Positions 35,645 to 63,120 of a stretch of DNA of 64,000 nucleotides are shown one piece after another. Numbering within the stretch: the stretch's first letter is position 1; each line of letters starts with the position of its first letter. Source of the DNA: Eledone cirrhosa (Eukaryota). The stretch lies in NCBI GenBank assembly GCA_964016885.1, contig OZ024742.1:316820001-316884000 (forward strand), given 5' to 3'. Under the pieces are notes generated by a model. The model did not search any database and was not told where the DNA came from. It was given only the letters and a program-made list of their open reading frames with translations. The translations under genes and the position numbers were made by a program.

Positions 35645-35902
35645 ACTAAAGGTGGAAAACTGGGAGAGGGCACTTGCCTTGGTGGTCAGGGTCATTGTGG
35701 ATTTTTACTGGGTTCTCCACAAATGTCCCTCCGAAGTCTCCCCCCTATTGGGGAATTTTTCATTGTTATTTTCATTGTTATTTTTGTTACATCCTCTGTT
35801 TTTGTTTTTTTACACGCAGAAATGCCCATTTGCACCGTCCTGCATTGTCCTGCACTGTCCTTAATGTCTACTTTATGTAAACCCTTGTGGTTAATAAAGA
35901 AA

Positions 35903-35954
<52 letters not shown>

Positions 35955-35969
35955 TTTTTTTTTTTTTTT

Positions 35970-38900
35970 CTAATTCAATGATGATCCAGAACAATATAAA
36001 AGAGATAATTGGCAATTTAGGTTCTGGAACAAAAAAGATCATTGGCAATAAGGGCAGGGGCCCCAGGTTATCACAGCCTGGGCCCGCTCGTCATCGTGCC
36101 ATTGTAATATACCCAAACAAGGCATTTAGTCTCGGCTGCTGGAACGTACGGACGCTGCTTGACAGGGATTCCTTGTGGCGTCTTGAACGAAGGACCGCTC
36201 TTGTTGCAAAGGAGCTGCGACGTTACGATCTTGACATCGTGGCTTTATCTGAGACGAAGCTAGCTGGAGATGGTCATCTTACGGAATTTTGTGGAGAATA
36301 TACATTCTTCTGGAAAGGAAGAGATGAAGGAACCAGAAGAGAGGCTGGGGTAGGATTTGCTGTTAAGGCCGTGCTTGTGAACAAATTAGAAGAATTCCCA
36401 GTAGGGATTAGTGAGCGTCTTATGTCCATGAGAGTTCCGCTGGACAAGGGAAGATATGCTACCCTGGTGAGTGTGTATGCTCCAACTATGAGTTCTGTCG
36501 ATGAGGAAAAGATGTCCTTTTACCATGCCTTGAAAGGTGTTTTAAGAAATATCCCTCAGGCAGACAAAGTCATCGTGCTTGGTGATTTTAATGCGAGAGT
36601 GGGTAGAGATTTTAACACATGGAATGTAATCGGAAGGCATGGGGTGGGAAAGTGTAACAGCAATGGTATGCTCCTGCTGCAGATGTGTGAGGAGCTGGAT
36701 CTGTGTGTTACCAACACCATGTTCCAACAAAAAAACAAATTCAAGACCACATGGATGCATCCTGCATCTAAGGAATGGCATCTTTTGGACTACGTCCTAG
36801 TCAGGATGCGTGACAGACAGGATGTGCAGTGTGTTCGTGTTCTTCGTGGTGCTGAGTGCTGGACGGACCATCGCCTGGTACGCGCAAAAGTGAAACTAAT
36901 CACTAAACGTAAAATCCGGGCTCCTGGTGTTGCCCTGCCCAAAAGATTGAATGCTGCTCGTCTTAAGGATAAACATGTGAAGAGGACATTGGAAGAAGAG
37001 ATGCAGGCTGCAGATCTTGGTGAGGATTGGCCGACCCTTAAAAAGTCGGTTTATGATGTAGGCAGGCGTGTTCTGGGATTGGCGCAGAGGAAACATCAGG
37101 ACTGGTTTGATGAGAATGATGTACATATAGAAGACTTGTTGGCTGATAAGAGGCGTGCTCTGTCACGCTACTTGACGGCAAAACCACAGGAGAGGAATAC
37201 GTTGCATGAGGAACTCAGGGATGTAAAATCTCGTGTTAGGCGGAGTCTTTCTCAGATGAAGGATCAGTGGTGGAGTGAGAAGGCTGGTGAGATACAAACT
37301 GCATCTGATTCCAATAACACAAAGCTGTTGTACAGTCTCTTGCGTGAGGTTTATGGGCCGTCTTCTTCTCTGGTGACACCGCTTCGCAGCAGGGATGGCA
37401 AAGAACTTCTTCCTGACTCACAAGGAATTCTACGAAGGTGGCGAGAGCACTTTGATGATCTTTTGAATCAGCCGTCTGTCGTCAGTGAAGATTTCCTCAA
37501 TCTCATTCCAGAAAGTCCTGTGAAAGTAGCTCTCGCAGAACCTCCGACGCTTGTGGAGGTTGCAGTGGCTATTTCGAAGCTGAACAGTGGAAGATCTCCA
37601 GGTATGGAAGGCATACATGCTGAGCTCCTACAATATGGTGGTGAGAGACTCCTGCAACATCTTCACTCTTTGTTTGGCAGGATATGGGCTAATGAATCCG
37701 TACCTGAGGACTGGATAGATGCAGTAATGGTGGTCTTGTACAAGGGAAAGGGTAACAGGAATGATTGTGGGAACTACAGAGGTATATCATTGCTTTCTGT
37801 CGTAGGGAAAGTTTTATGTAGAGTGCTTCTGGACCGTCTGCTGACACACATTGCAGATTGTGTTCTCCTGAAAGTCAATCTGCTTTTCGTGCTGGACGCG
37901 GCACTACTGATATGATCTTCTCAGCTAGACAGCTCCAGGAGAAGTGCATGGAACAAGGCTTGGATCTGTATCAGGTGTTTGTCGATCTGACAAAAGCTTT
38001 CGATACTGTTAACAGAGATGCATTATGGAAGGCTCTCCAGAAACTTGGTTGCCCTGATAAGTTCCTTGCTTTAGTTAGGTCTTTCCATGACGACATGAAG
38101 GCTTGGGTTAATGTCGGGGGTAACATGTCGGAGCCTATCTCAGTAAAAAATGGAGTGAAGCAGGGGGATATTCCAGCACCGACCCTGTTTGCCATATACT
38201 TTGCAATGGTTTTCTGTATTGCATTCAGGAATTGCGAGCATGGTGTTTACATCCGATATCGAACCTCAGGCAGCGTATTTAACATCAGGCGCTTTGCTGC
38301 GAAGACAAAAGTGTTTACATCAATCATAAGAGACCTCTTGTATGCAGATGATTGCGATCTTGTAGCGCACAGAGAGAGTGATATGCAGCACATTTTGAAT
38401 GCATTTTCTGACGCTTGCACTGCCCTAGGTCTGACTGTCAGTCTCAAGAAAACTGTCGTCATGTACCAACCTGCCCCTGGTAAGCAGTACACTGAACCAA
38501 ACATCTATGTGTATGGCAAACGACTTGGAGTGGTTGATCAGTTTGTCTACCTGGGAAGCACTGTCAATCGATACAGCAACCTTGACAGTGAAATCTCACT
38601 TAGGATTAGGAAAGCAAGTGATGCTTTCGGAAAGCTAGAAAGGTGACTCTGGGGTCGGCGAGACATATGCAGGAGGACTAAGGTAAAGGTGTACAGGGCA
38701 TGTGTGCTCTCTTGTCTTCTTTATGCCTGCGAGACCTGGGTCACATATCTACACCACCTTAAGCAATTGGAGCGTTTCCATCAGATGTGTCTCAGACGGA
38801 TCCATGGCGTTCACTGGAGGGACCACATCAGTGATGTCGAGATTTTGGAAAGCACTATGTGTGACAGTATAGAAGCTCTGGTGCTTAAGCAACGACTCCG

Positions 38901-39378
38901 TTGGAGTGGTCACCTTGCCAGGATGAAGGATTCTAGAGTACCAAAACAACTCTTTTATGGAGAGTTGGATAAAGGAAAACGACCGCCACATAAACCAAAA
39001 AAGAGGTATAAGGATTCCTTGAAAGCCTCTCTGAAAGACGCTAACATTTCTGCTGATACATGGGAGAATATTGCTGCTGATCGTAATAAATGGAGAAAGA
39101 CTGCATATGAGGGAAAAGTTGCCTTTGAGGCATCTCGAATCGCATACGAGAAAGTAAAGCGGGATGTGATGAAGGGCATTGCTGTTGCACTCCCAGACGG
39201 CGAGGGTCCTCCTATGGTGCTGACATGCAGCGTATGTGCGAGACTCTGCCTAAGCAAAGCTGGACTCGAAAGTCACACTCGTTCAGCGTATCGGTAGGGG
39301 TTCTCCTACATGGATATAAAGTAGTGGCCGTACTCGAAAACGAGTTCGGATCCACCATGTATGTATGTATGTAAGTAT
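35970..39378 (+). mobile_element. RTE-clade LINE, decayed, (TATG)n tail
   Basis: Single APE-RT ORF (WNVRTL, LSETK, VYAPT, GDFNARVG, WHLLDY, WTDHRLV; FVDLTKAFD, GVKQG, YADD, LRWSGHLARM). Short 3'UTR ends in CATGTATGTATG. Confidence 0.92.
35978..39297 (+). pseudogene. RTE ORF with a 1-bp frameshift near 37866 and in-frame TGA at 38644-38646
   Basis: Three consecutive ORF-track pieces join into one EN-RT protein ending in a C2H2-like motif CSVCARLCLSKAGLESH. Confidence 0.9.
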
Positions 39379-40954: not shown

Positions 40955-41108
40955 AATAAATGCTCTGAAATAGCGATATATATGTGAATATAGACATAGA
41001 ATATTCGAAAATATTCTGTATGTTTATAATAAACATTTTGAAGACCTAATCGCTATAGAATAGAATACGTCACGTATTACAATTAGATTCTCGACAAAAG
41101 CAAGGGAA

Positions 41109-41151
41109 GTAATCTACGCGTTTCATTCTTGTTAGAAATCTTCAGGACTAC
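41109..41151 (-). ncRNA. Minimal type I hammerhead ribozyme (also 41419-41461, 41729-41771, 42039-42081)
   Basis: Reverse complement of GTAGTC-CTGAAGA-T TTCT AACA AGAA T-GAAA-CGCG-TA-GATTAC. Confidence 0.85.
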
Positions 41152-42540
41152 ATATCCAGTGCTTTTATCGAGAATGACACAGCTAGAGACTTATAGAATA
41201 CTTAGCTGTGTACAGGAACTGGTTTGAAAGAGCGGTTGCCGGTCCGGCAGAAATTAGAAATTGGAATAAATGCTCTGAAATAGCGATATATATGTGAATA
41301 TAGACATAGAATATTCGAAAATATTCTGTATGTTTATAATAAACATTTTGAAGACCTAATCGCTATAGAATAGAATACGTCACGTATTACAATTAGATTC
41401 TCGACAAAAGCAAGGGAAGTAATCTACGCGTTTCATTCTTGTTAGAAATCTTCAGGACTACATATCCAGTGCTTTTATCGAGAATGACACAGCTAGAGAC
41501 TTATAGAATACTTAGCTGTGTACAGGAACTGGTTTGAAAGAGCGGTTGCCGGTCCGGCAGAAATTAGAAATTGGAATAAATGCTCTGAAATAGCGATATA
41601 TATGTGAATATAGACATAGAATATTCGAAAATATTCTGTATGTTTATAATAAACATTTTGAAGACCTAATCGCTATAGAATAGAATACGTCACGTATTAC
41701 AATTAGATTCTCGACAAAAGCAAGGGAAGTAATCTACGCGTTTCATTCTTGTTAGAAATCTTCAGGACTACATATCCAGTGCTTTTATCGAGAATGACAC
41801 AGCTAGAGACTTATAGAATACTTAGCTGTGTACAGGAACTGGTTTGAAAGAGCGGTTGCCGGTCCGGCAGAAATTAGAAATTGGAATAAATGCTCTGAAA
41901 TAGCGATATATATGTGAATATAGACATAGAATATTCGAAAATATTCTGTATGTTTATAATAAACATTTTAAAGACCTAATCGCTATAGAATAGAATACGT
42001 CACGTATTACAATTAGATTCTCGACAAAAGCAAGGGAAGTAATCTACGCGTTTCATTCTTGTTAGAAATCTTCAGGACTACATATCCAGTGCTTTTATCG
42101 AGAATGACACAGCTAGAGACTTATAGAATACTTAGCTGTGTACAGGAACTGGTTTGAAAGAGCGGTTGCCGGTCCGGCAGAAATTAGAAATTGGAATAAA
42201 TGCTCTGAAATAGCGATATATATGTGAATATAGACATAGAATATTCGAAAATATTCTGTATGTTTATAATAAACATTTTGAAGACCTAATCGCTATAGAA
42301 TAGAATACGTCACGTATTCTATTCTATAGCGATTAGGTCTTCAAAATGTTTATTATAAACATACAGAATATTTTCGAATATTCTATGTCTATATTCACAT
42401 ATATATCGCTATTTCAGAGCATTTATTCCAATTTCTAATTTCTGCCGGACCGGCAACCGCTCTTTCAAACCAGTTCCTGTACACAGCTAAGTATTCTATA
42501 AGTCTCTAGCTGTATCATTCTCGATAAAAGCACTGGATAT

Positions 42541-42583
42541 GTAGTCCTGAAGATTTCTAACAAGAATGAAACGCGTAGATTAC
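42541..42583 (+). ncRNA. Minimal type I hammerhead ribozyme (also 42851-42893, 43161-43203, 43470-43512, 43780-43822)
   Basis: Stem I GTAGTC/GATTAC; core CUGAAGA and GAAA; stem II TTCT/AGAA; palindromic stem III ACGCGT; GUA cleavage triplet (cut after 42577). Confidence 0.87.
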
Positions 42584-43987
42584 TTCCCTTGCTTTTGTCG
42601 AGAATCTAATTGTAATACGTCACGTATTCTATTCTATAGCGATTAGGTCTTCAAAATGTTTATTATAAACATACAGAATATTTTCGAATATTCTATGTCT
42701 ATATTCACATATATATCGCTATTTCAGAGCATTTATTCCAATTTCTAATTTCTGCCGGACCGGCAACCGCTCTTTCAAACCAGTTCCTGTACACAGCTAA
42801 GTATTCTATAAGTCTCTAGCTGTATCATTCTCGATAAAAGCACTGGATATGTAGTCCTGAAGATTTCTAACAAGAATGAAACGCGTAGATTACTTCCCTT
42901 GCTTTTGTCGAGAATCTAATTGTAATACGTGACGTATTCTATTCTATAGCGATTAGGTCTTCAAAATGTTTATTATAAACATACAGAATATTTTCGAATA
43001 TTCTATGTCTATATTCACATATATATCGCTATTTCAGAGCATTTATTCCAATTTCTAATTTCTGCCGGACCGGCAACCGCTCTTTCAAACCAGTTCCTGT
43101 ACACAGCTAAGTATTCTATAAGTCTCTAGCTGTGTCATTCTCGATAAAAGCACTGGATATGTAGTCCTGAAGATTTCTAACAAGAATGAAACGCGTAGAT
43201 TACTTCCCTTGCTTTTGTCGAGAATCTAATTGTAATACGTGACGTATTCTATTCTATAGCGATTAGGTCTTCAAAATGTTTATTATAAACATACAGAATA
43301 TTTTCGAATATTCTATGTCTATATTCACATATATATCGCTATTTCAGAGCATTTATTCCAATTTCTAATTTCTGCCGGCCGGCAACCGCTCTTTCAAACC
43401 AGTTCCTGTACACAGCTAAGTATTCTATAAGTCTCTAGCTGTGTCATTCTTGATAAAAGCACTGGATATGTAGTCCTGAAGATTTCTAACAAGAATGAAA
43501 CGCGTAGATTACTTCCCTTGCTTTTGTCGAGAATCTAATTGTAATACGTGACGTATTCTATTCTATAGCGATTAGGTCTTCAAAATGTTTATTATAAACA
43601 TACAGAATATTTTCGAATATTCTATGTCTATATTCACATATATATCGCTATTTCAGAGCATTTATTCCAATTTCTAATTTCTGCCGGACCGGCAACCGCT
43701 CTTTCAAACCAGTTCCTGTACACAGCTAAGTATTCTATAAGTCTCTAGCTGTGTCATTCTCGATAAAAGCACTGGATATGTAGTCCTGAAGATTTCTAAC
43801 AAGAATGAAACGCGTAGATTACTTCCCTTGCTTTTGTCGAGAATCTAATTGTAATACGTGACGTATTCTATTCTATAGCGATTAGGTCTTCAAAATGTTT
43901 ATTATAAACATACAGAATATTTTCGAATATTCTATGTCTATATTCACATATATATATTTATATATTAAGCGTATATATACATTCAAA

Positions 43988-47605: not shown

Positions 47606-47641
<36 letters not shown>

Positions 47642-48206
47642 GTTTAGCGAGGTTTTTTTATATGAAATCGTGTGTCGAAACAAATATTGTTATACTTGGG
47701 GAGGGTCATATTTGTGTAATATTGCCAGAATTAATAACAGAACACACTCACTGTTTGGTTGGTTTTCGCTTCTCGCTGTCTTTTATATCTGCGATCTAAC
47801 TTAATCGGTCCTCAATGTTGACATTGACTGACCGACGGTCAAAAATAATACAGATACAATATAGACACAAAGACATATATATATTTTACATAATTTACAT
47901 AAATCTTTCGTTGCACATCTGCAACATCGTCAGTGGTGTTATATTTTTTCCTCCTGTTGTGTTGTATGTCTACGCCATTTTTTATTCAGTCTGTCTATAT
48001 ATTTATTTATTTATTTGCTTGTTTGTTTATTTTATTTTGTCTTCTTTGCGCATGCGTTTGCGTGTGTGTATAGTGTCATGTTTGCTGTGTGACTAGTGTG
48101 TATAGTGTTGTGTCTGCTGGGTGACTAGTGTGTGTTTATGTGCTTGTTGTTATTGTGCTTGTGTATGTATTTATTTATCTTATTTTATTTTATTTTATTT
48201 ACTTAT

Positions 48207-48527
48207 TTATACTTCTCTTAGGTCAGTGTTGTTTGCTTGGGTGTTGTTGTTGTTCCACTCATTCTTTCTGTTTAGCTTTGGTCTTCTAATTTCTATTTCA
48301 CTGGCCTCTCTGATTTGTCTATCTGCTGGGTCATTCCTATGTTTAGATATTATTCTAATTTCTATGTTGTCTATGTTACCGTCATGTTGTTGCCTAGCAT
48401 GTTCGTATAGTACTGACCCGTTTTTTCGTCCTTTTAGTTCCCCCCAGTGTTGGTCTATCCTTTCACCTATGCTGCGAGCTGTTTCGCCTATGTATGTTGT
48501 TGTCATGTTTCTGCAAGTACCCTCTGT
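48207..48527 (-). pseudogene. GIY-YIG endonuclease fragment of Penelope-like element (left arm)
   Basis: TEGTCRNMTTTYIGETARSIGERIDQH...REASEIEIRRPKLNRKNEW. Confidence 0.8.
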
Positions 48528-48864
48528 CTATAGCATAAGATGTACAGAGGGTACTTGCAGAAACATGACAACAACATACATAGGCGAAACAGCTCGTAGC
48601 ATAGGTGAAAGGATAGACCAACACTGGGGGGAACTAAAAGGACGAAAAAACGGGTCAGTACTATACGAACATGCTAGGCAACAACATGACGGTAACATAG
48701 ACAACATAGAAATTAGAATAATATCTAAACATAGGAATGACCCAGCAGATAGGCAAATCAGAGAGGCCAGTGAAATAGAAATTAGAAGACCAAAGCTAAA
48801 CAGAAAGAATGAGTGGAACAACAACAACACCCAAACAAACAACACTGACCTAAGAGAAGTATAA
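48526..48864 (+). pseudogene. GIY-YIG endonuclease fragment of Penelope-like element (right arm)
   Basis: VYSIRC...C....YIGETAR...RIDQH...EH...E..EI....PKLN, the PLE-type GIY-YIG pattern. Confidence 0.85.
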
Positions 48865-49130
48865 ATAAGTAAATAAAATAAAATAAAATAAGATAAATAA
48901 ATACATACACAAGCACAATAACAACAAGCACATAAACACACACTAGTCACCCAGCAGACACAACACTATACACACTAGTCACACAGCAAACATGACACTA
49001 TACACACACGCAAACGCATGCGCAAAGAAGACAAAATAAAATAAACAAACAAGCAAATAAATAAATAAATATATAGACAGACTGAATAAAAAATGGCGTA
49101 GACATACAACACAACAGGAGGAAAAAATAT

Positions 49131-49175
49131 AACACCACTGACGATGTTGCAGATGTGCAACGAAAGATTTATGTA
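49131..49175 (+). ncRNA. Hammerhead-like motif in PLE 3' region (mirror copy ~47896-47940, minus strand)
   Basis: CTGACGA-T-GTTGCA GATG TGCAAC-GAAA-GATT-TA. Core and stem II are good but stem I is only ~2 bp, so it may be degenerate. Confidence 0.5.
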
Positions 49176-49379
49176 AATTATGTAAACTATATATATGTGT
49201 TTGTGTCTATATTGTATCTGTATTATTTTTGACCGTCGGTCAGTCAATGTCAACATTGAGGACCGAGTAAGTTAGATCGCAGATATAAAAGACAGCGAGA
49301 AGCGAAAACCAACCAAACAGTGAGTGTGTTCTGTTATTAATTCTGGCAATATTACACAAATATGACCCTCCCCAAGTAT

Positions 49380-49455
<76 letters not shown>

Positions 49456-55816: not shown

Positions 55817-56100
55817 TGATGTTGATGGCTGCCCCCTCATTATCAAGTATGGTCATTGCACGATATACTATTATTAATAATTAAGTTAAAGATGTACATC
55901 CATATATGTATACTGAAATACTAGTATGTATATGAATACACACACGTATACATATGTAGGTGTACCAAGTTTTTTCACTGGTCACTTTACTGTGAGTGGC
56001 CAGCTAGTCTGTATGTAAACACACAGACAAACCGGTTTTTAGAGTCATACTGGTTTTTGAGGAAACACCTCTCCTCTATTCTCCAGAAAGCCAGACAAGG

Positions 56101-56145
56101 AATATTGAACTAGTTTCGTTGTTGTTACAACTCATCAGCAATATT
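56101..56145 (-). ncRNA. Minimal type I hammerhead ribozyme (also 56568-56612, 57035-57079, 57502-57546, 57969-58013)
   Basis: Reverse complement of AATATTG-CTGATGA-GTTG TAACAA CAAC-GAAA-CTAG-TT-CAATATT. Confidence 0.9.
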
Positions 56146-58698
56146 TACCTATCTTCCGGCCTCTCTAGAGAATCGTAAAAGCACATATCGTTATATGCTT
56201 TTTCTATGAAAATTAGTAGTGGGCAGACTAATTTGCATAGAGTGTGAGTAAGTACCGGTTCAACAGAGACGATAAAAACAAATAACGAAACGAAATTAAA
56301 TTTCGTTTCGTTTGTAACTCACTTTTGTATGACTGACGCTTAAACAATTAAGTTAAAGATGTACATCCATATATGTATACTGAAATACTAGTATGTATAT
56401 GAATACACACACGTATACATATGTAGGTGTACCAAGTTTTTTCACTGGTCACTTTACTGTGAGTGGCCAGCTAGTCTGTATGTAAACACACAGACAAACC
56501 GGTTTTTAGAGTCATACTGGTTTTTGAGGAAACACCTCTCCTCTATTCTCCAGAAAGCCAGACAAGGAATATTGAACTAGTTTCGTTGTTGTTACAACTC
56601 ATCAGCAATATTTACCTATCTTCCGGCCTCTCTAGAGAATCGTAAAAGCACATATCGTTATATGCTTTTTCTATGAAAATTAGTAGTGGGCAGACTAATT
56701 TGCATAGAGTGTGAGTAAGTACCGGTTCAACAGAGACGATAAAAACAAATAACGAAACGAAATTAAATTTCGTTTCGTTTGTAACTCACTTTTGTATGAC
56801 TGACGCTTAAACAATTAAGTTAAAGATGTACATCCATATATGTATACTGAAATACTAGTATGTATATGAATACACACACGTATACATATGTAGGTGTACC
56901 AAGTTTTTTCACTGGTCACTTTACTGTGAGTGGCCAGCTAGTCTGTATGTAAACACACAGACAAACCGGTTTTTAGAGTCATACTGGTTTTTGAGGAAAC
57001 ACCTCTCCTCTATTCTCCAGAAAGCCAGACAAGGAATATTGAACTAGTTTCGTTGTTGTTACAACTCATCAGCAATATTTACCTATCTTCCGGCCTCTCT
57101 AGAGAATCGTAAAAGCACATATCGTTATATGCTTTTTCTATGAAAATTAGTAGTGGGCAGACTAATTTGCATAGAGTGTGAGTAAGTACCGGTTCAACAG
57201 AGACGATAAAAACAAATAACGAAACGAAATTAAATTTCGTTTCGTTTGTAACTCACTTTTGTATGACTGACGCTTAAACAATTAAGTTAAAGATGTACAT
57301 CCATATATGTATACTGAAATACTAGTATGTATATGAATACACACACGTATACATATGTAGGTGTACCAAGTTTTTTCACTGGTCACTTTACTGTGAGTGG
57401 CCAGCTAGTCTGTATGTAAACACACAGACAAACCGGTTTTTAGAGTCATACTGGTTTTTGAGGAAACACCTCTCCTCTATTCTCCAGAAAGCCAGACAAG
57501 GAATATTGAACTAGTTTCGTTGTTGTTACAACTCATCAGCAATATTTACCTATCTTCCGGCCTCTCTAGAGAATCGTAAAAGCACATATCGTTATATGCT
57601 TTTTCTATGAAAATTAGTAGTGGGCAGACGAATTTGCATAGAGTGTGAGTAAGTACCGGTTCAACAGAGACGATAAAAACAAATAACGAAACGAAATTAA
57701 ATTTCGTTTCGTTTGTAACTCACTTTTGTATGACTGACGCTTAAACAATTAAGTTAAAGATGTACATCCATATATGTATACTGAAATACTAGTATGTATA
57801 TGAATACACACACGTATACATATGTAGGTGTACCAAGTTTTTTCACTGGTCACTTTACTGTGAGTGGCCGGCTAGTCTGTATGTAAACACACAGACAAAC
57901 CGGTTTTTAGAGTCATACTGGTTTTTGAGGAAACACCTCTCCTCTATTCTCCAGAAAGCCAGACAAGGAATATTGAACTAGTTTCGTTGTTGTTACAACT
58001 CATCAGCAATATTTACCTATCTTCCGGCCTCTCTAGAGAATCGTAAAAGCACATATCGTTATATGCTTTTTCTATGAAAATTAGTAGTGGGCAGACGAAT
58101 TTGCATAGAGTGTGAGTAAGTACCGGTTCAACAGAGACGATAAAAACAAATAACGAAACGAAATTAAATTTCGTTTCGTTTGTAACTCACTTTTGTATGA
58201 CTGACGCTTAAACAATTAAGTTAAAGATGTACATCCATATATGTATACTGAAATACTAGTATGTATATGAATACACACACGTATACATATGTAGGTGTAC
58301 CAAGTTTTTTCACTGGTCACTTTACTGTGAGTGGCCGGCTAGTCTGTATGTAAACACACAGACAAACCGGTTTTTAGAGTCATACTGGTTTTTGACCAGT
58401 GAAAAAACTTGGTACACCTACATATGTATACGTGTGTGTATTCATATACATACTAGTATTTCAGTATACATATATGGATGTACATCTTTAACTTAATTGT
58501 TTAAGCGTCAGTCATACAAAAGTGAGTTACAAACGAAACGAAATTTAATTTCGTTTCGTTATTTGTTTTTATCGTCTCTGTTGAACCGGTACTTACTCAC
58601 ACTCTATGCAAATTAGTCTGCCCACTACTAATTTTCATAGAAAAAGCATATAACGATATGTGCTTTTACGATTCTCTAGAGAGGCCGGAAGATAGGTA

Positions 58699-58743
58699 AA
58701 TATTGCTGATGAGTTGTAACAACAACGAAACTAGTTCAATATT
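58699..58743 (+). ncRNA. Minimal type I hammerhead ribozyme (also 59166-59210, 59633-59677, 60100-60144)
   Basis: Stem I AATATTG/CAATATT; CUGAUGA; stem II GTTG/CAAC; GAAA; palindromic stem III ACTAGT; GUU triplet (cut after 58736). Confidence 0.92.
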
Positions 58744-60499
58744 CCTTGTCTGGCTTTCTGGAGAATAGAGGAGAGGTGTTTCCTCAAAAACCAGTATGAC
58801 TCTAAAAACCGGTTTGTCTGTGTGTTTACATACAGACTAGCTGGCCACTCACAGTAAAGTGACCAGTGAAAAAACTTGGTACACCTACATATGTATACGT
58901 GTGTGTATTCATATACATACTAGTATTTCAGTATACATATATGGATGTACATCTTTAACTTAATTGTTTAAGCGTCAGTCATACAAAAGTGAGTTACAAA
59001 CGAAACGAAATTTAATTTCGTTTCGTTATTTGTTTTTATCGTCTCTGTTGAACCGGTACTTACTCACACTCTATGCAAATTAGTCTGCCCACTACTAATT
59101 TTCATAGAAAAAGCATATAACGATATGTGCTTTTACGATTCTCTAGAGAGGCCGGAAGATAGGTAAATATTGCTGATGAGTTGTAACAACAACGAAACTA
59201 GTTCAATATTCCTTGTCTGGCTTTCTGGAGAATAGAGGAGAGGTGTTTCCTCAAAAACCAGTATGACTCTAAAAACCGGTTTGTCTGTGTGTTTACATAC
59301 AGACTAGCTGGCCACTCACAGTAAAGTGACCAGTGAAAAAACTTGGTACACCTACATATGTATACGTGTGTGTATTCATATACATACTAGTATTTCAGTA
59401 TACATATATGGATGTACATCTTTAACTTAATTGTTTAAGCGTCAGTCATACAAAAGTGAGTTACAAACGAAACGAAATTTAATTTCGTTTCGTTATTTGT
59501 TTTTATCGTCTCTGTTGAACCGGTACTTACTCACACTCTATGCAAATTAGTCTGCCCACTACTAATTTTCATAGAAAAAGCATATAACGATATGTGCTTT
59601 TACGATTCTCTAGAGAGGCCGGAAGATAGGTAAATATTGCTGATGAGTTGTAACAACAACGAAACTAGTTCAATATTCCTTGTCTGGCTTTCTGGAGAAT
59701 AGAGGAGAGGTGTTTCCTCAAAAACCAGTATGACTCTAAAAACCGGTTTGTCTGTGTGTTTACATACAGACTAGCTGGCCACTCACAGTAAAGTGACCAG
59801 TGAAAAAACTTGGTACACCTACATATGTATACGTGTGTGTATTCATATACATACTAGTATTTCAGTATACATATATGGATGTACATCTTTAACTTAATTG
59901 TTTAAGCGTCAGTCATACAAAAGTGAGTTACAAACGAAACGAAATTTAATTTCGTTTCGTTATTTGTTTTTATCGTCTCTGTTGAACCGGTACTTACTCA
60001 CACTCTATGCAAATTAGTCTGCCCACTACTAATTTTCATAGAAAAAGCATATAACGATATGTGCTTTTACGATTCTCTAGAGAGGCCGGAAGATAGGTAA
60101 ATATTGCTGATGAGTTGTAACAACAACGAAACTAGTTCAATATTCCTTGTCTGGCTTTCTGGAGAATAGAGGAGAGGTGTTTCCTCAAAAACCAGTATGA
60201 CTCTAAAAACCGGTTTGTCTGTGTGTTTACATACAGACTAGCTGGCCACTCACAGTAAAGTGACCAGTGAAAAAACTTGGTACACCTACATATGTATACG
60301 TGTGTGTATTCATATACATACTAGTATTTCAGTATACATATATGGATGTACATCTTTAACTTAATTGTTTAAGCGTCAGTCATACAAAAGTGAGTTACAA
60401 ACGAAACGAAATTTAATTTCGTTTCGTTATTTGTTTCTATTATTAATAATTATTGATTAATTCTATCGTGCAATGCCTGTGCGTGAAGATTTTTTTTAA

Positions 60500-60730
60500 A
60501 GTGAGGAAAGACTGTGCACTGAGCCAATCCCACTCTCTGGGCGACAGTAGATATAACCAGAAAAGAAGAAAAGATCAGCATCATCGGTAACTACTGAGCC
60601 GCAGGTTTTAAGTCGGTGTTATCCCAGTTTCCTGAGTTGCCTTCTCCTAGAAGAATGCCCTGACCAAGGCTAGGGGTCCTTCACTCCCAGTGGTTTAACC
60701 GCGCGATCGGGTATCCAGCACAATTATCAG
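60500..60730 (-). mobile_element. Fragment with RTE-type 5'UTR motif
   Basis: Minus strand CCCCTAGCCTTGGTCAGGGCATTCTTCTAGGAGAAGGCAACTCAG resembles the motif in the 600-bp non-autonomous element. Confidence 0.55.
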
Positions 60731-61097: not shown

Positions 61098-62387
61098 TTT
61101 TCACAAAGTTTTACCAATAGAGAGAGAGTCGGTTCCTAACATAGACACAAGACTCTCTCATTGGAATTTACACACTAGGTAGATTATGTATGCATGCATG
61201 CATGTGTAGATATCGATGTTATTGTATGTGTGGATGTGTATGTTTTGAGTTGTATGTATGCATGTGTATATGCTTTGTATCTGTACATGTGTATATGCAG
61301 TTATTAGATGCAACATTTTTGGAATGTTTTACATTTATTTTATTGTTCCATTAATGGATTGTACTTGTAATTTCCTAACTAGTTGTGTTCTTTCTGTTCC
61401 TGTGAAGCCTAGCTTCTCAAGATTTGTATTGAGGCAGTTACTAACATATCCCAGTGCCCCAATAGTCACAGGCATAAATCTGAAGGTGTAATCAGGGTGG
61501 AGTATCTGCAAATTTCTCATCAGTTCTGCATAAATATTCTCCTTTTCACTAATCTTTGATATTATATTGACATCTGCTGGGCAGCTAATTTCCACTACTG
61601 TGCATGCTTTCTTCTCCCTGTCCCATATCATAATATCTGGTCTGTTATGCCTGCATTTTATTGGGGTTTTTACTGGAATATTCCACCAGTACTCTTTCAT
61701 ATTATGTACATGGATATATTCCACATTGTTGTAGCTTTTAATGTGTTTATTATAGGGGCTATCCTTTTTACGAACTGCACTGTACAGTGTTTTGGCCACT
61801 ACATCATGCCTCATAGGTAATAGTACCGCGATGACATCTTTGGACAGCTGCTGATGACATGGGTGATATCCTCGATGTTAGTTCTGCATAGTCTGCACTT
61901 GTTATCACATCTAGGTATTTTTGCCTGCATCCCTATCTCTTTTGTGAATCAGGTATTTCGTGCTAATCTCCTGTTCCTGGATTGCAAAAGCGTATCCTTC
62001 AAAGTGGGAGCCAATATAGCGGTTGTTAGTCCAAGATAGACTACTTTTCTTTTCTATATTACTCTCACTCTGGAGCTTGCTGGCAACATATCCATGCATG
62101 ACTTTTTGCTGATAGGCATGCAGTTTTTCATCCATGGATTCACAGCGATACTGCTGAGCGACATCCCTGGGTGTGAGTTTTTGATTATCACACAGGGAAT
62201 ATCTTTCGAGAAGTTCCTTCCCAACTCTCATGATCTTATCTGTTTCATGCAGATAGACTTGCTCGAGAAACGGGCTCCTACGCTTCGAGGTTCGTAGATG
62301 TTGTCGGAGAGATAAGATGCGACATTCAAATGTTGTCTGGACTGATGTTAGGCCTCTGCCTCGCTGCTTACGTTTCAAGTAAAGGCG
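61098..62387 (-). mobile_element. 5'-truncated R4/Dong-like LINE (restriction-like endonuclease), frameshifted
   Basis: RLYLKRKQRGRGL, MHG, EGYAFAIQEQEIST, CRLC....EDITHVISSC, RHD, HNRPD...VEISCP, IGALG. Confidence 0.85.
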
Positions 62388-62391
62388 GTAT

Positions 62392-63038
62392 GAATGTATG
62401 TATGTTCTTCTGGTTTTATAATTTCACAACGTTTTACCAATAGAGAGTCGGTTTCTAACATAGACACAAGACTCTCTCATTGGAATTTACACAACATCAA
62501 CTAGGTAGATATGTATGTATGTCTGCATTCATGCATGTGTAGATATGGATGTTATTGTATGTGTGGATGTGTATGTTTTGAGTTGTATGTGTTCATGTGT
62601 ATATGCTTTGTATCTGTACATGTGTATATGCAGTTATTAGATGCAACATTTTTGGAATGTTTTACATATTTTTACTGTTCCATTAATGGATTGTACTTGT
62701 AATTTCCTAACTAGTTGTGTTCTTTCTGTTCCTGTGAAGCCTAGCTTCTCAAGATTTGTATTGAGGCAGTTACTAACATATCCCAGTGCCCCAATAATCA
62801 CAGGCATAAATCTCAAGGTGTAATCAGGGTGGAGTATCTGCAGATTTCTCATCAGTTCTGCATAAATATTCTCCTTTTCACTAATCTTTGTTATTATATT
62901 GGCATCTGCTGGGCAGCTAATTTCCACTACTGTGCATGTTATCTTCTCCCTGTCCCATATCATATCTGGTCTGTTATGCCTGCATTTTATTGGGGTTTTT
63001 ACTGGAACATTCCACCAGTACTCTTTCATATTATGTAC
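62392..63038 (-). mobile_element. Second 5'-truncated R4/Dong-like LINE copy, (CATA)n tail, stacked head-to-tail
   Basis: KEYWWNVPVKTPIKCRHNRPD...VEISCP...KTFQKCCI* plus the 3'UTR. Confidence 0.85.
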
Positions 63039-63120
63039 GTATGTATGTATGTATGTATGTATGTATGTATGTATGTATGTATGTATGTATGTATGTATGT
63101 ATGTATGTATGTATGTATGT
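63039..63120. repeat. (TATG)n microsatellite
   Basis: Direct observation. Confidence 0.95.

Follow-up and report, generated by a model that had tools for sequence, protein, structure and literature searches.

A head-to-head hammerhead array in Eledone cirrhosa as a probable retrozyme insertion primed at two sites

A 64,000-nt stretch of the Eledone cirrhosa genome (contig OZ024742.1 of assembly GCA_964016885.1, positions 316,820,001 to 316,884,000 of the forward strand; hereafter the window) contains a ~4.6-kb head-to-head palindrome of 467-bp hammerhead ribozyme units, which lies at window positions 55868-60452 and includes a 16-bp target-site duplication (TSD). The block is best explained as one young insertion of a non-LTR (long terminal repeat) retrozyme that was mobilised in trans by a Penelope-like element (PLE), was dual-primed and was likely copied by rolling around a monomer circle; the probability of this reading is put at about 0.65. 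Apparent as patterns in the DNA, and pointing to it, are the duplication, the polarity of the arms, the two fixed sites used once each, the haplotype shared by both arms and the variable inner ends.

Structure of the locus

The features of the locus are collected in Table 1. An earlier note, made from the letters of the sequence, had described five minus-strand and four plus-strand cores, a head-to-head inversion, a TGA overlap and a 16-mer directly repeated on both flanks, and this architecture was borne out when the sequence was re-analysed. The 73 nt at the centre separate the longest complementary arms. The units are all identical but for four positions (57630, 57870, 58097 and 58337), which fall in the two innermost units of the left arm. 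The outer end of the right arm becomes unit position 303 instead of 299 if microhomology with one G-U is included. A 13-bp hairpin is found at 60400-60428, inside the tail.

Exactly nine cores were found by a strict scan of the window (CUGAUGA...GAAA and a fully paired 5-bp stem II), every one within the 467-bp array, with matches at 56138, 56605, 57072, 57539 and 58006 on the minus strand and at 58706, 59173, 59640 and 60107 on the plus strand. In the 310-bp array and in the PLE listed in Table 1 the basal pair of stem II is mismatched, and the scan passed over their cores. An Rfam search of the array gave nothing at the gathering score; the comparison with hammerhead covariance models that the earlier note had suggested did give a match to Rfam HH9 (37.7 bits, E 9.6e-08), which lies under the HH9 cut-off of 52.

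The unit is low in GC (~0.35) and non-coding, the longest open reading frame (ORF) from an ATG being 30 aa, and the monomer is strongly self-paired, with a folding z of -8.8 against shuffled sequences (-7.4 in a related family of 420-430 nt). No LTR-type structure was seen in the array, in which the primer binding site and the polypurine tract had no separate search.

Table 1. Features of the window; unit positions are numbered from the predicted hammerhead cut
Feature	Position	Strand	Remarks
TSD, left copy, 16 bp	55868..55883	+	final 5 nt overlap the left arm and are shared with the RNA at site A, a primer-template microhomology
TSD, right copy, 16 bp	60437..60452	+	second of the two 16-mers
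Host repeat, 5' part	55818..55883	+	insertion target, abundant repeat
Host repeat, 3' part	60437..60727	+	3,490 candidate copies in assembly G000
Left arm	55879..58395	-	5.4 units; outer end (RNA 3' end) at unit position 229, site A; inner end at 48
Right arm	58393..60436	+	4.4 units; inner end at position 124, RNA 3' end outward at 299 (site B)
Inversion centre	58320..58395		asymmetric 73-nt segment and TGA microhomology of 3 nt (58393-58395), by which the arms overlap
Variant block	57630..58337	-	two innermost left-arm units, two extra variants each; no mirror copies in right arm
Tail	60367..60436	+	70 nt between sites A and B; only at right outer end; contains hairpin
Hammerhead core 1, type I	56108..56145	-	predicted stem I 7 bp, stem II 5 bp, stem III 2-bp palindrome, GUU triplet
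Hammerhead core 2	56575..56612	-	strict core scan
Hammerhead core 3	57042..57079	-	strict core scan
Hammerhead core 4	57509..57546	-	strict core scan
Hammerhead core 5	57976..58013	-	strict core scan
Hammerhead core 6	58699..58743	+	cut predicted after 58736
Hammerhead core 7	59166..59210	+	cut predicted after 59203; 58737-59203 is one cut-to-cut monomer
Hammerhead core 8	59633..59677	+	strict core scan
Hammerhead core 9	60100..60144	+	strict core scan
Second hammerhead palindrome	40955..43955		310-bp unit, 4.4 minus and 5.3 plus units, ends at positions 160 and 139, in (TA)n; replicate
PLE 3' fragment, head-to-head	47639..49387		GIY-YIG C-terminus, minimal hammerhead motif, 45-nt tail at left end only, in (TA)n; control

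Target site

The 16-mer is present exactly twice in the window, and the two flanks are the halves of one abundant host repeat. In seven of nine empty paralogues of this repeat a single 16-mer, with one or two differences, links the left-flank to the right-flank sequence; in the other two the site has been moved by an indel and the 16-mer is still undoubled. Contigs of sequencing run X1, with 44 loose ends at 60439, likewise connect the right flank to left-flank sequence with nothing between. The single 16-mer that the earlier note expected of an empty site is thus seen in the empty paralogues, while a true empty allele of the locus was not found. Judged from these comparisons, the 16-bp duplication at the window locus is real. 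At two further insertions in unique sequence the target is duplicated over 13 and 14 bp, and either end has a microhomology of 2-5 nt.

A dispersed family

The searched assembly, G000, comprises 3.0 Gb. A search with the unit gave 782 candidates, of which 36 were scored. The exact pattern of an array end followed by (TA)n had 349 matches for one end and 2,015 for the other (1 and 0 control matches, respectively), and all 20 of the latter that were sampled belong to the 467 family. The 96 stretches analysed are the window, 35 of the best matches and, from the two end patterns, 40 (of 349) and 20 (of 2,015) stretches; together they contain 95 insertions. The 40 and 20 pattern-picked stretches were taken in order along contig C1; one end is fixed by design in these and the other is free. 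Excluded were L114, L124 and L128 (no arm), L130 (<40 nt) and L066-L069 (overlap with other loci), and the shared variants of L134 and L139 are mostly artefacts of gap placement against the 467 reference.

The window locus is a member of a large, non-coding dispersed family. The unit or parts of it were found in sequencing runs X1-X20, from many organisms, with at least half of the words of the unit in eight of the entries; contigs of X1, X4 and X5 carry the unit, with the tandem joint in X4 and X5. Most flanks in the set that was not selected by end pattern are (TA)n, which hides duplications there, and show the bias for AT-rich or microsatellite targets.

Insertion anatomy and the two-site rule

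Head-to-head structure with the RNA 3' ends outward was found in 65 of the 95 insertions and tail-to-tail structure in none; the remaining 30 are single arms. Eleven of the single arms have an inverted stub of 8-18 nt, and in each of the 11 the stub and the long arm end at complementary sites. The outer ends cluster at site A, 224-241 nt past the cut, and site B, 282-306 nt past the cut. One A end, at ~229 nt, is paired with one B end, at ~303 nt, in 57 of 61 complete palindromes (31 AB, 26 BA, 1 AA, 0 BB and 3 other), and in 25 of 26 in the set not selected by end pattern. The longer arm may start at either site (A in 27, B in 30). The inner joins mostly overlap by 0-3 nt and the positions of the inner ends are variable.

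The rule is obeyed by two other kinds of element, the 310-bp family in 17 of 17 palindromes (18 insertions) and the autonomous PLE in 8 of 8 head-to-head pairs (34 stretches). A third related hammerhead family of ~420-430 nt (L106:7471-7899, L112, L126, L164, L082 and L178) was also observed, with compensatory changes and with outer ends at the two positions homologous to A and B.

The internal priming that the earlier note had proposed is therefore found in a sharper form than was claimed, with two fixed family-wide sites, one per arm. Its further suggestion, that ends away from the cut would fit a circular RNA, lends the circle no support, as the protein-coding PLE in the window has two internal ends too and an anole PLE has two internal starts in vitro (PMC11167929; for this and the other published work, statements refer to the available parts of the sources). 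The case for a circular template would thus rest on evidence other than the positions of the ends.

Inner ends fall within -4 to +21 of the predicted cut in 19 of 158 cases against 8.5 expected (p = 9e-4), an enrichment that comes mainly from arms shorter than one unit and is absent in arms of at least one unit (8 of 105). In L125:5785-7218 the sequence leaps over the hammerhead core at two junctions, each time continuing precisely from the predicted cut, and a reiterated hexamer just downstream resembles reverse-transcriptase stuttering. From the near-cut inner ends and the L125 junctions it seems possible that linear RNA, once cleaved, serves as template too; another potential cause is the closing stem of the fold.

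A probable common template for the two arms

The two arms of a locus are closely alike. The mean distance between arms is 0.007 within loci and 0.054 for shuffled pairs (p = 2e-4), and in 38 of 53 cases no arm is closer than the own partner, which in 21 is the single nearest; the same concordance is found in the 310-bp family. Variants are often fixed across all units of both arms. The marker of the window occurs 11 times in G000, ten times in the window and once elsewhere (L190); L190 was rejected as source of the window haplotype, being of another subfamily and without the second marker. The L052 marker has 7 + 1 occurrences genome-wide, and the L059 marker is found throughout a nine-unit arm against at most two per arm elsewhere. 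For these three, of five markers searched in G000, no other array was found with the length that a linear source would need. The markers of L155 and L055 were rejected as private, since they look so in the sample yet are common to several loci genome-wide.

Within the arrays, 265 of 271 internal cut-site junctions are perfect, which would suit ligation better than end-to-end jumping. There are 242 single-unit mutations in ~320 units, and shared variants that are not fixed occur in 15 of 44 arrays. As single-unit mutations dominate, the units look born together rather than grown stepwise. The claim of the earlier note that the whole palindrome arrived in one endonuclease-primed event is supported by the TSD as validated on the empty paralogues and by the single private haplotype of the arms, and the mostly independent single-unit mutations of older arrays favour it over growth as a satellite.

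Relation to Penelope-like elements

The array ends lie apart from the cut site, and because the two-site rule is the signature of the PLE 'tail' they point to internal priming by PLE-type machinery. The enzyme that inserted the arrays was very probably a PLE protein. The PLE family of the fragment at 47639-49387 is abundant and young, with ORFs of up to 1,167 aa, the full-length ones with an asparagine-rich N-terminal insert. Pfam gave no match for the ORF of this family, which we take to hold the reverse transcriptase (RT) and GIY-YIG motifs of a PLE. An inverted 5'-truncated copy and a one-sided tail have been described for PLEs and their formation was left open (PMC8557442, PMC3846280). [quoted passage not shown]

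The 467 unit itself had no match to two PLE proteins and has no ORF with RT and GIY-YIG, and the array is not an autonomous endonuclease-containing (EN+) PLE. No PLE coding sequence was found within 1.2 kb upstream of 29 of the 30 single arms. Candidates for PLEs in G000 numbered 26,129 and 23,857, of which 150 of each were scored; the PLE family of L152 has no visible likeness to the unit.

The locus L156:553-4290, in which a retrozyme arm faces a 5'-truncated PLE from a different family head-to-head, was considered as a hybrid insertion and rejected because the ages appear to differ: 13 private changes were counted in the 1,009 columns of the PLE part, and the retrozyme arm has 3 differences in ~800 comparisons. 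By these counts the PLE part is probably an older neighbour, and the hybrid is kept as a weak lead.

Proposed mechanism

Transcripts of an array would cleave themselves, and the monomer would then be ligated into a circle that resists further cleavage. With a stem III of only two palindromic base pairs, dimers would probably be the cleaving form; such short palindromic stems hinder cleavage of monomers yet permit that of dimers (PMC4209133). Staggered nicks 13-16 nt apart in AT-rich DNA, as suggested by the duplications, would be made by a GIY-YIG endonuclease. Copying would begin at two fixed RNA sites that flank the conserved hairpin, one per DNA end and in either order, with 2-5 nt of priming microhomology as seen at the three unique-sequence sites; the two sites and their use once each are a pattern of the whole family. 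Each reverse transcriptase would run a variable distance, from a few nt to more than 13 units, and would sometimes switch template. Joining of the two copies at their inner ends would give the head-to-head palindrome with its one-sided tail, the structure seen in the insertions.

A more specific model is given somewhat better than even odds. A PLE dimer would grip the circular ribozyme RNA at the hairpin, each subunit would prime one of the nicked strands at its own flank of the hairpin and both would roll round the circle, writing the palindrome in one step. Target-primed rolling-circle reverse transcription would then have left a fossil record in animal genomes, and the rule of one site per strand would explain the inverted copy and the one-sided tail of all EN+ PLEs, for which an explanation has long been lacking.

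A number of points weigh against the reading of the block as a PLE-mobilised copy of a circle. Self-cleavage, expression and circularity of the RNA are predictions from the DNA; in the circular minimum-energy fold the core of the monomer lies outside the active shape, and eight of nine Xenopus retrozymes did not cleave in vitro (10.64898/2026.07.22.740005). Double changes at 5 of the 14 hammerhead pairs, counted over the 467, 469 and 420-430-nt families and with pairing lost in slid controls, speak for the stems, yet the counts come from two related clades rather than from independent events. G000 represents one haplotype, and a missing source array may be unassembled or segregating. A search for kinship with PLE 3' regions, in which few families were sampled, gave only weak AT-rich matches or overlaps with retrozyme insertions. 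In the window the two innermost units of the left arm belong to another, closely related haplotype, the arms of L053 and L049 also switch haplotype and the patterns of L143 and L034 are mixed; such switches within arms need template switching, multimer templates or later exchange. The change in L049:3873-6275 occurs within a unit, from the common haplotype to a subfamily that differs at 13 positions, and is likely a template switch between two RNAs.

Alternative explanations

Dual priming by a PLE on a read-through transcript, long and uncleaved, from an array already in place, with no circle, is unlikely, though it survives best among the alternatives. Uncleaved RNA is the dominant substrate of the anole PLE in vitro (PMC11167929), the haplotype blocks inside the arms of the window, L053 and L049 resemble a copied heterogeneous array, and for two of the five markers, those of L155 and L055, longer sibling arrays exist as possible linear sources. 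By this route, however, arrays could only shorten in each generation, and new variants would be confined to one unit, whereas variants are observed fixed in all units of both arms; the three markers with no sufficiently long source also speak against it. Variants that recur every second or fourth unit, as from dimer or tetramer templates, were seen at few sites in L039, L040, L035 and L059; the period-2 patterns of L039 and L040 fit dimer circles, with few variants behind them.

It is improbable that one primed cDNA folded back and copied itself, the endonuclease then resolving the ends and producing the tail. Self-priming has been proposed for PLE inversions on an antisense template (PMC3846280). 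Fold-back would give the nearly symmetric centres found in 14 of 66 cases (p = 0.0016), three of them with overlaps of 29-74 nt at RNA hairpins, and the positive correlation of the arm lengths (rho 0.42). The other 52 of 66 centres are asymmetric, the longer arm may be at either site (with an excess of over one unit in 13 and 15 cases), the variants of the inner left arm of the window are unmirrored on the right, and there is microhomology at both outer ends. Fold-back may explain a minority of the centres.

That a short palindrome was inserted first and its arms then grew as a satellite, by slippage or unequal exchange, is likewise improbable. A local-amplification route has been suggested for retrozymes (10.64898/2026.07.22.740005), and in L143, L110, L053 and the window variants are shared among neighbouring or repeated units. 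Against such growth, very long arrays are free or nearly free of mutations (L044, 13.2 units and none; L155, at least 14 units and none; L032, 14.6 units and one change), the single-unit changes that dominate older arrays make the units look equally old, and 105 of 154 arms already cover a full unit. It is scarcely credible that the block is an artefact, made by the assembly or by fold-back reads of the library, or that an ordinary PLE copy has left its end repeat here. Palindromes built of identical units are difficult for an assembler, and the centre in the window is as given by the assembly; but the validated duplication, the arm-specific variants, the varied centres and the fixed two-site rule in two families and the PLE argue against these readings, as do the constant period, the lack of longer ORFs and the single arms without upstream PLE coding sequence.

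Other elements in the window

The core of the 310-bp unit has a U-U mismatch at the base of stem II and a GUA triplet, and its family is found genome-wide. Positions 1-35700 hold ~6 head-to-tail copies, with a period of ~6.06 kb, of a two-ORF non-LTR retrotransposon that we take to be Tx1-like; the one copy examined has an intact ORF2 of 1,204 aa with endonuclease, RT and zf-RVT domains. Directly behind this tandem array, at 35645-39297, lies a broken non-LTR element, presumably RTE-like. Two fragments of non-LTR elements on the minus strand at 61335-63119 have what we assume to be a restriction-like endonuclease motif.

Comparison with known systems

Retrozymes, PLE inversions and tails are already known, and their connection through insertion anatomy appears to be new; in the literature outside supplements and subscription journals no account was found of head-to-head retrozyme arrays, of a rule of one site per end or of arm-haplotype evidence. 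An in vitro test of the model is feasible, since the element is young and abundant, its start sites are defined and the genome also has intact PLE ORFs; ORFs of 1,167 aa and of 777-780 aa are candidates for the PLE protein. If the rolling-circle reading is true, it gives a direct route for satellite-like arrays born full length, and a reverse transcriptase that inserts multimers from circular RNA would interest work on genome writing.

In L1 twin priming both target strands prime, the RNA 3' ends are outward, the inner joint has microhomology and the target is duplicated, the same polarity as here. The first L1 primer is at the poly(A) end and the second at variable sites, whereas here both sites are internal and fixed, without poly(A).

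Non-LTR retrozymes have in common non-coding, low-GC tandem units of a few hundred bp with one type I hammerhead each, a self-paired monomer, a target duplication of more than 4 bp and coexistence with PLEs (PMC7229834; 10.64898/2026.07.22.740005). The 467 array agrees in its type I hammerhead units within 150-1000 bp and its dispersed copies with a duplication of more than 4 bp. The retrozymes described in the available parts of the same sources are direct tandems, in contrast to the head-to-head arrays here. Retrozyme circles have been demonstrated in published work by northern blot and RT-PCR, whereas here the circle is deduced from DNA. Mobilisation by PLEs and copying of circles were proposed there as hypotheses from coexistence and phylogeny (PMC7229834; 10.64898/2026.07.22.740005), and the anatomy of the insertions bears, beyond coexistence, on which enzyme mobilises animal retrozymes and on whether circles are copied.

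With EN+ PLEs the arrays share the head-to-head layout, the one-ended tail, the AT-rich or microsatellite targets, duplications of ~8-16 bp and a presumed trans-mobilisation via cis-acting repeats (PMC3846280, PMC8557442). They differ in having no ORF and in that both arms are multimers of one exact unit, for which no matching autonomous repeat was found, and the tail is ~70 nt (~25 nt in the 310 family) against 30-40 nt in EN+ PLEs. For the tandem and inverted structures and the tails of PLEs, whose origin published work treats as an open question (PMC8557442, PMC3846280), the arrays give a sharp rule: one start site per strand, in either order, and a shared template.

A further likeness is to the Anolis PLE PAc (Poseidon), which shares two internal starts that bound the tail, nicking and extension of both strands and cleavage of AT-rich DNA (PMC11167929). 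The available parts of that work leave aside one site per strand within one event, templates in trans and circles, and report no homology between target and start site, whereas here 2-5 nt of microhomology are found at three unique-sequence sites.

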